NCBI GenBank assembly: GCA_026387335.1
Contig: JAPLLX010000001.1
Location: 16,489 to 80,488 of the forward strand
DNA length: 64,000 nt
DNA from: Candidatus Omnitrophota bacterium
GTDB lineage: Bacteria; Omnitrophota; Gorgyraeia; Gygaellales; Profunditerraquicolaceae
Reading direction: 5' to 3'
Position numbers and translations under genes: made by a program
Shown here: positions 61,783-64,000 of the stretch, piece after piece
How positions within the stretch are numbered: the first letter of the stretch is position 1
How the letters are laid out: the number at the start of each line of letters is the position of its first letter
The notes under the pieces: model-generated
What the model was told of the DNA's origin: nothing
The model's input: only the letters and a program-made list of their open reading frames with translations
Databases searched by the model: none

Positions 61783-61811
61783 TTGACAAAACCGGCTAGA
61801 GATGTTATAAA
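61783..61811 (+). promoter_or_regulatory. strong sigma70-like promoter TTGACA-N17-TATAAA driving the solitary pilin gene, with ~155-nt leader
   Basis: Perfect -35 TTGACA at 61783-61788. TATAAA at 61806-61811. Confidence 0.5.
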
Positions 61812-61967
61812 TAAAAAAGCTTATTTAGAAGGGGGCTTACGCGCGCAGAAACAAGTAACCTCTTAAGGGAGCTGACAGAAGTTCTAATTTATCTAATAAC
61901 AAAAAAAGAGGTTAAGCAGCAAGATCGCGTAAAGTTAATCTTACCTTAGAAAGGGGGATTGCAGAAA

Positions 61968-62348
61968 ATGAATAGAAAAGGTTTTACATTAGTTGAAATC
62001 ATGATCGTAGTAGCCATCATCGCGTTATTAGCCGCTATCGCTATACCTAACTTGTTGAGCGCCAGGATTACCGCGAATACCGCGGCAGCCAAGGCGAATG
62101 TGCGTAGTCTGTCAACAGCGGCAGAAACATATTCAACCGCGAATAACGGCGGATATCCGGGTACTGTAACCGCGCTGGCAACTTTTATCGGCGCAGCAGA
62201 CAGCTATTGTAACAAAACAACTCAAGGCTACACCTATACCTGCACCTTAGCTACAACCGGTTATACTATTTCCGCGGCGCCACTTTCAACGCAAACCGGC
62301 ACCACGACTTACACTGCTACTACCGGAGGAGTGCTTACGCCATTATAA
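61968..62348 (+). CDS. pilA: type IV major pilin (PilA-like), canonical G|FTLVE prepilin signal, Thr-rich C-terminal region
   Basis: MNRKG|FTLVEIMIVVAIIALLAAIAIPNLL. ATG 61968 preferred over TTG 61959, with RBS GGGGGA 9 nt upstream. Monocistronic between a strong promoter and terminator. Confidence 0.85.
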   Translation: MNRKGFTLVEIMIVVAIIALLAAIAIPNLLSARITANTAAAKANVRSLSTAAETYSTANNGGYPGTVTALATFIGAADSYCNKTTQGYTYTCTLATTGYTISAAPLSTQTGTTTYTATTGGVLTPL

Positions 62349-62375
62349 AAAAGCGCTTCTTATGAAGAGTCAAAA

Positions 62376-62408
62376 AGAGGAGAGGAGAAAATCCTCTCCT
62401 CTTTTTTA
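62376..62408 (+). terminator. rho-independent terminator after pilA
   Basis: agaggagagg / cctctcctct 10-bp stem, 7-nt loop, TTTTTT. Confidence 0.6.
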
Positions 62409-62413
62409 TTGAA

Positions 62414-64000
62414 TATGCCTAAACTGAAATCCCCCGTATTTATTTTAGTCTTCTTGATCCTCGCCTGCTCCTGCGCTTTTTTTTATTATAATTCTTTGCA
62501 GAGTCCTTTTATCTGGGATGACGACGCTTTAATTGTTAAGAACCCGGTTATTCGAAGTTGGTCGAATTTACCCAAGGCCTTTACCAGTGACCTCTATTCC
62601 GGAGTTTCCTTCGGCTCAAATTTTTACCGTCCGCTACAAACAATTTCCTATATGTGGGATTACCATTTATGGCAATTGGATCCTTACGGGTACCATTTAA
62701 CTAACATTTTTCTGCAAATCTTGGTTGCCTTCCTGGTATTTCTGTTTACCTTTTATTTTCTTAAAGAAACAAGGGTGGCCCTGGCCGCAGCCCTGTTTTT
62801 TGCTTTGAATCCGCTGCATACGGAAGCAGTTACTTATATCTCCGGCAGGGCGGATATGCTTATGGCCGTGTTTTTACTTTCAGCGCTGCTTTTATTTATC
62901 CGGGGAAGGCGCGTCCTTTCCTGGCTAGCCTTTGTTTTCGCGCTGCTCTCAAAAGAATTAGCGGTAGTTTTTCCTTTAATTATCCTTGGTTATTTATTCT
63001 ATTGCCGCAACCAAGAGATCAAGAAAAAAGATGGTTTCTTAAAATTAATCCTACCTTTCCTGGCAATTGATTTCTTGTATTTACTATCCAGGGTTACATC
63101 TTTAAATTTCCTGCGCACACATCCTCCGGCACTGGCTAAATATCCTTTACTGGTAAGGCTTGTGGTTTTGCCGGATGTCTTGCTGGCTTATTTTAAGTTA
63201 TTGATCTTACCGGTCGATTTGCATATGAGTTGGACCTTACAACGCGCGACGAATTTTTCCGGCATATTTTTAAATTGGTTTTTATTCGGGATGTTTTTTG
63301 CAGCCAGCGCCTGTATTTTTAAAAAGTATAAACAGGCCAATATTTGGGGCTTTATGTTGTTTTGGTTTTTTATTTTTTTTCTTCCTCAGGCGGGCCTCCT
63401 GCCGATCAATGCTTTTATCGCCGAGCATTTCCTCTATTTATCTTCAATAAGCTTTTTTGTATCGGTAGCTTATTTGCTGAATAAATTTTTAAGAAGAGAG
63501 TTATTTTATGCCGCGGTAGTCCTTTTAGCGGCCCTTTACGGGATACTTACATTTAGCCGCAACTTTGACTGGCGGGATCCGGTAATTTTTTACGAAAAGA
63601 TAATCAAATTTTCCCCAAATAGTTTTCAGGCGCACAATAATTTGGGTTTGCAGTATGAGCGCTGCCATCTTTTTGATTTAGCGCTGATCGAATATAAAAA
63701 GGCCCTTGAGATCAAACCGGATTTAATTGAGGCGCGTTCGAACCTAGCCAGTCTTTATTTTAAAACCGGAAGATTTCAGGACGCGCGTCTGGAATATTCT
63801 AAAGTAGAAACGCTTGCCCCCAAAAATAAATCCGCAGAGGTACAGAATAATATCGGCTGTGTATTTGAGGTCGAAGGGTTATTGGATGATGCTTTAGATA
63901 GGTATAGGCTGGCTTTGAGCTTGGATCCAACTTTAAATTTCACGCATTTTAACATCGCCCGTATTTATGCGGCTAAGGGTAAGTTTGATTTGGCGGGGCA
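62414..64000 (+). CDS. TMTC-like membrane glycosyltransferase (DUF1736) with C-terminal TPR repeats; 3' end outside window
   Basis: Open frame from ATG 62414 to the window end. FIWDDDALIVKNP...YRPLQTISYMWDYHLWQLDPYGYHLTNIFL is paralogous to 39372..40793. TPR motifs begin ~63600. Confidence 0.6.

Follow-up and report, generated by a model that had tools for sequence, protein, structure and literature searches.

A linked pilin and GT-C/TPR protein gene pair in Omnitrophota as a candidate pilin O-glycosylation cassette

A pilin and GT-C/TPR gene pair and its closest described counterparts

In Pseudomonas aeruginosa group IV, the gene immediately downstream of the pilin gene pilA encodes TfpW, a GT-C protein of 646 aa. 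TfpW has ~11 transmembrane (TM) helices followed by a C-terminal TPR domain in the periplasm, and the DDX motif of its periplasmic loop 1 is essential; tfpW is required for O-linked D-arabinofuranosylation of pilin Ser/Thr residues, mainly Thr64 and Thr66 in the alpha-beta loop, and in several proteobacteria a TfpW homolog is encoded beside pilA (bioRxiv 10.1101/2020.04.19.049825). Nearly all Omnitrophota have type IV pili, which are thought to attach these ultra-small, probably host-dependent cells; the words glycosyl and TPR do not occur in the text of the study that describes them (PMC10066038). Here we analyzed a 64,000-nucleotide (nt) stretch of DNA (the window) from a Candidatus Omnitrophota bacterium (contig JAPLLX010000001.1, positions 16,489 to 80,488 of the forward strand), the proteins of which all have their nearest relatives in Omnitrophota (OP3) metagenome-assembled genomes. 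Near its end, we found a type IV pilin gene directly followed by a gene for a GT-C protein with C-terminal TPRs, which we call the transferase. The locus is a further example of a pilin plus GT-C/TPR accessory cassette, in a new phylum and with a TMTC-like motif set. On comparison with the described systems, we favor with moderate confidence a reading in which the transferase acts as an accessory O-glycosyltransferase that would modify the pilin in the periplasm, as TfpW does.

We compared the cassette with pilA-tfpW(-tfpX) of Pa5196 and PA7 by published description. The two agree in the size of the enzyme (646 aa for TfpW and 648 aa for a full-length relative of the window protein), in gene position, in the DD of loop 1, in the TPR domain and in the terminator that follows the pilin gene. 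They differ in the loop-4 motif YX6PFX7P of TfpW, half of which is present here: Y259-x6-P266 is invariant, but a V follows in place of F and the next 8 residues contain no further Pro. The Omnitrophota cassette also lacks tfpX, is set upstream of minor pilin genes and pilMNOPQ, and belongs to Omnitrophota rather than to Proteobacteria. The Omnitrophota protein agrees with TfpW in every architectural feature that could be tested and, as judged from the published descriptions, probably works like it.

A sequence-only reading of the window had considered the arrangement, if confirmed, to be undescribed and had taken pilA-tfpO as its parallel. The first of these claims was overstated, because pilA-tfpW matches the cassette both in layout and in the architecture of the enzyme, and for the second pilA-tfpW is the closer match. 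The gene for TfpO (PilO) also lies right after pilA and its product is likewise a periplasmic pilin glycosyltransferase, acting on the C-terminal Ser of strain 1244 pilin; however, TfpO comes from an unrelated enzyme family and, like PglL, is Wzy_C/O-antigen-ligase-like, uses preassembled undecaprenyl-diphosphate oligosaccharides and has no TPR domain.

The eukaryotic cadherin O-mannosyltransferases TMTC1-4 share with the window protein 11 TM helices and C-terminal TPRs on the non-cytoplasmic side. TMTC proteins carry the motifs M1 DD, M2 SHKSYRP, M3 RxD, M4 KE(T/Q)xxT, a DW in loop 4 and M7 ERxxY (PMC7801869). In the window protein, we matched DD (35-36), SNFYRP (68-73), RAD (145-147), KE (180-181) and EHxxY (337-341), by eye and not by alignment. 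In contrast, the DW of loop 4 was not found, with PxxLH (266-270) in its place, and the domain DUF1736 was undetected. The donor would differ as well, being dolichyl-P-mannose for TMTCs and a bacterial polyprenyl-phosphate sugar here. The PMT family (yeast Pmt1/2/4) and ArnT stand further apart, with 11% sequence identity; PMTs have MIR and not TPRs, and ArnT acts on lipid A.

The open reading frame (ORF) of the transferase starts with the ATG at 62415, not at 62414 as had been read, and stays open for 528 codons as far as the window end; the full-length relative (P0001) is 97% identical. In the AlphaFold2 (AF2) model, 11 TM helices with the fold of a GT-C enzyme come first and TPR helices (404-645) follow, and the TPR part matches Pfam TPR_1, TPR_2 and TPR_11 at E 1e-15 to 1e-17. 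We deduced the topology from N-terminal Lys residues and from the positions of the motifs in loops. The putative catalytic residues D35 and D36 (62517-62522) are placed in loop 1, within FIWDDD (residues 32-37) right after TM1, and the other motifs are Y71R72P73, R145xD147, K180E181, H270 and E337H338xxY341. By the helix order of the model, DD, YRP, R145, E181, H270 and E337-H338 fall in loops 1, 1, 2, 3, 4 and 5, respectively. Across 64 orthologs, D35, D36, R72, P73, R145, E181, H270, E337 and H338 are invariant and Y71 is nearly so; D35 and D36 are also present in ten distant paralog representatives.

Sequence searches with the membrane domain gave little. Pfam and NCBIfam returned no significant match for the TM domain of the transferase and of its orthologs (sub-threshold: Mannosyl_trans4 at E 0.004 and AZOBR_p60025 at 2e-5), and a profile of the TM domain found no match among PDB sequences even at E 10. 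DUF1736 (PF08409), to which the protein had been assigned, gave no match at E<=0.01 in the window protein or in ten paralog representatives, none at E<=1 in ten ortholog TM domains, and does not figure among the precomputed Pfam domains of 120 homologs, so this part of the earlier assignment is not supported. One paralog within the window (39372-40793) scores above the Pfam PMT_2 cutoff, and its alignment to the transferase family profile has an hhalign E of 1e-43; of the ten paralog representatives, two exceed the cutoff for PMT or PMT_2 and another two match below it. By TM-domain profile, the GT-C/TPR superfamily comprises 96,179 cluster representatives when the threshold is E<=1e-3 and 11,908 when it is E<=1e-30, with three members within the window; the pilin-linked orthogroup is a handful of 50% clusters. 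Modeled fold, architecture and motifs support the identification of the downstream protein as a TMTC-like GT-C enzyme with C-terminal TPRs, in line with the earlier description of a polytopic TMTC/PMT-like protein.

The upstream gene had been described as a textbook pilin with a G/FTLVE signal, and we found the same. The prepilin has the MNRKG leader peptide, F6 as the mature start and E10 at position +5, and it matches both Pfam N_methyl (E 7e-9) and NCBIfam IV_pilin_GFxxxE (TIGR02532; 34.3 bits, cutoff 16.3). In the AF2 model (pLDDT 87.4), a helix alpha1 (8-58) is followed by the alpha-beta loop and four beta strands (88-95, 98-105, 115-118 and 122-124; sheet pLDDT ~89), and there is a single Cys pair, C81 and C92. 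The protein is unusually conserved, with 62-93% identity among its best 120 database clusters, and its C-terminus TGGVLTPL is invariant in an alignment of close homologs.

Ser and Thr make up 42% of the last 45 aa; the corresponding averages are 31% for 40 orthologs and 21% for 89 other prepilins. The enrichment that had been noted is therefore real; however, the segment is not a tail. The Thr-rich C-terminal third is a conserved, confidently modeled four-stranded beta-sheet and not a low-complexity region, with the conserved segment QGYxYxCTL..GYT..A.P....TG..TYTA(T/S)TGGVLTPL. We rejected Thr-richness as a marker of glycosylation, because the strands that are rich in Thr form part of the conserved fold and occur in lineages without the GT-C gene too.

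Linkage of the pilin and transferase genes across loci

We collected orthologous regions from 56 GTDB species genomes, found by the membrane-domain profile, and annotated them with a custom ORF/phmmer script. At 36 of the 37 GTDB species loci with at least 46% TM-domain identity, a pilin gene lies directly upstream on the same strand; its end is 16-352 nt upstream at 35 of these loci, and the ORF calls overlap by 23 nt at the remaining one. The pair is retained where the downstream pilMNOPQ genes are lacking (L008, L009 and L011), and it is kept where the upstream genes differ, with ThyX/CbiQ/ABC/cupin genes at L142 and L146 and sugar-nucleotide genes at L144 and L145. Repeated pilin-GT-C modules occur at the distant loci L043 and L046. 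Because distant paralogs (30-38% identity) are mostly found in tandem arrays without pilins, the linkage characterizes the pilin-linked orthogroup rather than the superfamily.

For the reciprocal comparison, loci were chosen by pilin similarity alone; the counts are not phylogenetically independent. Five pilins ending in ...TGGVLTPL and one ending in ...VVTP each have the GT-C gene next. Four pilins with other ends (...GGVLEDTPAEAPQED, ...GGVITES, ...GGNIEEEPYVAPV and ...GGVLTDTAAVAPES) are followed by genes for a 157-aa pilin-like protein and/or a 138-aa pilin-like protein (p138) and then by PilM, without a GT-C gene. When metagenome loci were added, the GT-C gene was found behind 8 of 9 pilins ending in ...TP(L) and behind 0 of 7 with altered or extended C-termini. 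A metagenome scan with the pilin profile returned mostly unrelated pilins that had the N-terminal helix alone in common.

We compared the variants without GT-C (L143, L147, L148 and L149) to counterparts that carry it (L141, L142 and L144-L146). In precisely these variants, the pilin no longer ends in TGGVLTPL but in an altered or an acidic, extended sequence, and position 117 is I/V, not A. Overall, linked and unlinked pilins differ mainly at positions 125-126 (the P-L end), at position 117 (A vs I/V) and in the Ser/Thr occupancy of positions 60, 66, 71, 72 and 76 of the alpha-beta loop. Taken together, these data show that the pilin-GT-C pair is tightly and reciprocally linked across Omnitrophota, and a functional link between the two genes has good support. 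The co-occurrence of the two genes, which the sequence-only reading had put forward as a check on its proposal, is thus conserved (36 of 37 loci; 8 of 9 as compared to 0 of 7 pilins).

Expression signals, leader RNA and genomic context

The features of the cassette are collected in Table 1. The sequence-only reading had credited the pilin gene with a near-consensus promoter, a long leader and its own terminator, the signals of a highly expressed gene, and each of these was found, along with a Shine-Dalgarno sequence (SD). The pilin start is the ATG given in the table, because the alternative TTG at 61959 overlaps the SD. A generic promoter scanner missed the promoter, as it demands a T at the final position of the -10 element. 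The pattern TTGACA-17-TAnAAn, with the extended TG in the majority, recurs at most of 40 orthologous loci, and the distance from promoter to pilin start is 136-157 nt in ~30 of the 40. This recurrence is far above chance. The SD is kept in the orthologs as AGGAGG or AGGGGG.

Table 1. Coordinates of the cassette features within the window
Feature	Position	Strand	Details
Sigma-70-type pilin promoter	61783..61811	+	TTGACA 61783-88, 17-nt spacer, extended -10 TGtTATAAA 61803-11 (TG 61803-04, TATAAA 61806-11)
Structured 5' leader of pilin mRNA	61818..61967	+	about 145-150 nt; covariance model
Shine-Dalgarno of pilin	61951..61958	+	AAGGGGGA, 9 nt 5' of ATG
Type IV prepilin gene	61968..62348	+	126 aa, class III signal, MNRKG/FTLVEIMIVVAII
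Pilin peptide	within 61968-62348	+	...TGTTTYTATTGGVLTPL
Intrinsic terminator/attenuator between pilin and transferase genes	62373..62409	+	15-bp stem, core GAGGAGAGGA/TCCTCTCCTC, T6 run 62402-07
GT-C fold membrane domain (modeled)	62415..63623	+	residues 1-403, 11 predicted TM helices
C-terminal TPR domain start, predicted periplasmic	63624..64000	+	cut by window end

The terminator stem pairs 62373-87 with 62393-62407, with the T-run after it, and the region between the two genes has a folding energy of -28.5 kcal/mol. A polypurine hairpin with a T-run is found in nearly all orthologs with a gap of at least 59 nt and is retained at L143, a locus without the GT-C gene; one sub-clade of orthologs has a pilin-GT-C gap of 16-35 nt and no hairpin. 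In the window, the gap is 66 nt, nearly all of it terminator, and the ATG of the transferase gene lies 7 nt past the T-run, which leaves no space for a separate promoter between the two. Since the gap is filled in this way, and since several orthologs have gaps of 16-35 nt, the transferase gene is most likely expressed by read-through from the pilin promoter; a promoter within the pilin coding region is a possible alternative. A terminator behind the pilin gene is a general feature of pilin-accessory cassettes and is proposed to attenuate the accessory gene (PMC11841053). Independent transcription of the transferase gene without conserved linkage to pilins had been named as an outcome that would speak against a glycosylation module; instead, the gap lacks room for a promoter and the linkage is conserved.

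Between promoter and pilin start, the mRNA has a structured leader. Helix P1 closes it, and helix P2 is long-range, pairing 61856-64 with 61906-14; a conserved GAAGTTnTAATTTAT (a GAAGTTATAATTAT-like element) sits in a large loop, and in the 3' hairpin P3 (61937-47 with 61951-60) the SD is paired to an upstream AATCTTACCTT. The common architecture was drawn by hand from individual folds, and a covariance model, R1, was built from eight sequences. R1 gave one match per locus, always ending at the pilin ATG, at 31 loci of a first set and 14 further loci of a second set, including loci without the GT-C gene. In the resulting alignment, which is fitted to R1 itself, 90.6% of the cells are paired as compared to 42-62% with slid partners; compensatory changes are seen in 16 of 28 pairs, including 9 of 9 in P2, and 0 of 500 shuffles of this model-fitted alignment reach the observed values. 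RNAalifold on MAFFT alignments of the leader found nothing beyond the invariant SD hairpin, and an Rfam scan of the leader returned no family, just weak sub-threshold terminator-like matches.

The leader occurs directly 5' of each pilin ATG at L005-L048, L061-L066 and L141-L148, with the GT-C gene present or absent, and it is short (28-37 nt) in the sub-clade of L006, L008, L009 and L011. The leader RNA belongs to the pilin gene and not to the transferase gene. Near its 5' end, the SD core recurs as AAGG(G/A)G, and this second copy could compete with the SD for the anti-SD; both are invariant. As a conserved structured pilin leader, the RNA is a candidate for a new cis-regulatory element. At L143, the MiaB-like gene is separated from the pilin leader by a gene (2348-3145) for a 265-aa protein with a weak PilZ-domain match, which could be a link from cyclic di-GMP to pilin expression.

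In relatives that are 97% and 75% identical, the gene order is pilin, GT-C/TPR protein, 157-aa pilin-like protein, p138, PilM, PilN, PilO, PilP-like protein and secretin PilQ. The p138 gene lies just past the window end (12425-12841 of L001, the 97% identical relative). Its product has a hydrophobic N-terminal helix (...AKSFVVIMIV...) without Gly-1 and Glu+5 and has no Pfam or NCBIfam match. Besides the pilin, p138 is the most constant partner in the cassette: orthologs are found in most loci and are kept even where the GT-C gene or pilMNOPQ is missing. Upstream, the housekeeping genes for Memo/AMMECR1, DsbD_2, RsmE and a MiaB-like protein are syntenic in many loci.

A second pilus/secretion cluster lies upstream at 46316-56378, with housekeeping genes between it and the cassette. 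It encodes a 516-aa PilM-PilN fusion (47035-48585), PilO, a T2SSB-like protein, a secretin (49619-51172), a PilB-like ATPase with MshEN (51190-52923), PilC and five pilin-like proteins (54254-56378); at its head is a 135-aa ORF (46316-46723) without a Pfam match at E<=0.01. Two secretins and two sets of PilMNO are therefore encoded within ~25 kb of this genome. Ahead of the second cluster lies a gene (43579-46065) for a protein of 828 aa that consists entirely of TPRs. Elsewhere in the window, a 508-aa ORF (19760-21286) has no Pfam match at E<=1e-6. At L001, a gene for an IS200/IS605-type Y1 transposase (3438-4028) lies between the minor-pilin and radical-SAM genes; the corresponding site of the window (56378-56606) is a 228-nt spacer with tRNA-Ala(CGC) at 56455-56530.

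Proposed function, sugar donor and alternatives

If the cassette works as proposed, the route would be as follows. The prepilin would be inserted in the membrane and prepilin peptidase would remove MNRKG, leaving the globular domain in the periplasm, while read-through of the terminator would yield transferase mRNA and little enzyme per pilin. A cytoplasmic GT2 enzyme would load a sugar on polyprenyl phosphate and the lipid-linked sugar would be flipped, steps that are modeled on GT-C three-component systems (PMC11127046). The periplasmic TPR domain would pick the pilin, possibly via its invariant free C-terminus ...T-P-L, and the GT-C domain would move the sugar to pilin Ser/Thr hydroxyls, with acceptors in the alpha-beta loop and/or in the Thr-lined sheet. 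The glycosylated pilin would then be polymerized by the PilBCMNOPQ machinery. By extrapolation from TfpW and TfpO, the likely benefit would be masking of the conserved pilus from phages or tuning of adhesion.

Circumstantial leads for the sugar donor are found inside the window and at related loci. The product of a GT2 gene (37429-38190) weakly resembles polyprenyl-phosphate sugar synthases (AglJ, PpgS and Dol-P-hexose transferases), with scores below the cutoffs. Two GT-C genes stand behind it: one at 38168-39367 (PMT_2, E 4e-10) and the paralog of the pilin-linked enzyme described above, which has a short TPR region. No GtrA-like flippase gene adjoins the GT2 gene, the ORFs scanned from 9.5 to 37 kb for donor-pathway genes are for fatty-acid, leucine, arginine and lysine biosynthesis and similar functions, and no D-arabinofuranose genes (DprE1/E2, DPPR synthase) were seen among the window ORFs scanned. 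At L144 (1-3176) and L145 (1230-3481), genes for UDP-glucose 6-dehydrogenase and one or two SDR epimerases/dehydratases lie directly upstream of the pilin-GT-C pair. The SDR genes are ArnA-C/UDP-xylose-synthase-like, below family cutoffs, and these neighbors hint at a possible UDP-glucuronate-derived sugar.

Several observations weigh against glycosylation of the pilin by the transferase. The cassette has no linked gene for a polyprenyl-phosphate sugar synthase or a flippase; the GT2 gene is 24 kb off and beside GT-C paralogs. With 96,179 representatives in the superfamily, and three in this window, substrates are surely diverse. The linkage has exceptions: L010 has the GT-C gene without a pilin, and the L068 pilin ends in ...VLTP without a GT-C gene. 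The correlations are also uncorrected for phylogeny. In the sheet, T116, T118 and T119 are kept in pilins without the GT-C gene, and Thr-richness does not track the enzyme. Lineages without GT-C keep pilMNOPQ, so the enzyme is dispensable for the pilus system.

Some of these points would also fit an enzyme that is active but has its main substrate elsewhere, be it the 157-aa pilin, p138, PilQ, general periplasmic proteins or envelope glycans, with the operon position serving co-regulation. General O-glycosylation systems that also modify pilins are known (PglL). The transferase gene sits between the major pilin gene and two pilin-like genes plus pilMNOPQ, the size of the superfamily and the paralog arrays without a nearby pilin (L044, L052 and L053) fit such an enzyme, and so does the persistence of the conserved sheet Thr in lineages without GT-C. 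However, the GT-C gene stays with the major pilin where pilMNOPQ and the 157-aa pilin are absent (L008, L009 and L011), loci without GT-C keep the 157-aa pilin and p138 while the C-terminus of the major pilin is what changes, and the pilin-GT-C pair is duplicated as a unit in L043 and L046. We consider a main substrate other than the major pilin rather unlikely.

Another explanation, which we consider very unlikely, is that the protein serves mainly as a pilus assembly factor through its TPRs, as an analogue of PilF/PilW/Tgl or as a chaperone like TfpY/FimB, and that its GT-C domain is an anchor. PilF, PilW and Tgl are outer-membrane lipoproteins and not inner-membrane proteins with 11 TM helices, whereas the transferase has 11 TM helices and no lipobox. 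Its matches to Tgl (48 bits, cutoff 225) and PilW (36.6 bits, cutoff 154) are no better than those to MamA, Pex5, OGT and designed TPRs. Across the 64 orthologs, the residues of catalytic type do not vary, although a mere anchor would not need them, and lineages without the GT-C gene retain pilMNOPQ. That the adjacency is inherited synteny in a region that was simply not rearranged, as the conserved order of the upstream Memo/AMMECR1, DsbD_2, RsmE and MiaB-like genes might suggest, is the least credible explanation, because the pair persists where the upstream context varies (L142 and L144-L146) and is duplicated together (L043 and L046), because GT-C loss accompanies a changed pilin C-terminus, and because the gaps of 16-170 nt have no promoter space.

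Modification of the pilin by the transferase is thus the reading that we prefer, and it has a bolder version that we regard as doubtful. Here, the TPR domain would read T-P-L-COOH, as PEX5 reads SKL-COOH and TPR clamps read EEVD-COOH, and the GT-C domain would then O-glycosylate the folded pilin, making the cassette a bacterial prototype of TMTC cadherin O-mannosylation. Lineages without the enzyme would have remodeled or extended the pilin C-terminus, and the uncatalogued leader RNA would gate the module by hiding the ribosome-binding site. If this were true, the pilin would be the first natural substrate for ~10^5 uncharacterized bacterial GT-C/TPR proteins.

Three new points are the most useful: the cassette is conserved across the phylum, the enzyme goes with pilins that end in ...TPL and is naturally missing in some variants, and the pilin gene has a structured leader that is not catalogued. 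The natural enzyme-less variants could be used as controls, and the cassette is a concrete, testable candidate enzyme-substrate pair for bacterial TMTC-like GT-C/TPR proteins, a very large family that is blank as to function. If the proposed glycosylation is true, the main surface appendage of Omnitrophota would be glycan-coated, which would bear on phage resistance, on host recognition and on the high conservation of the pilin.

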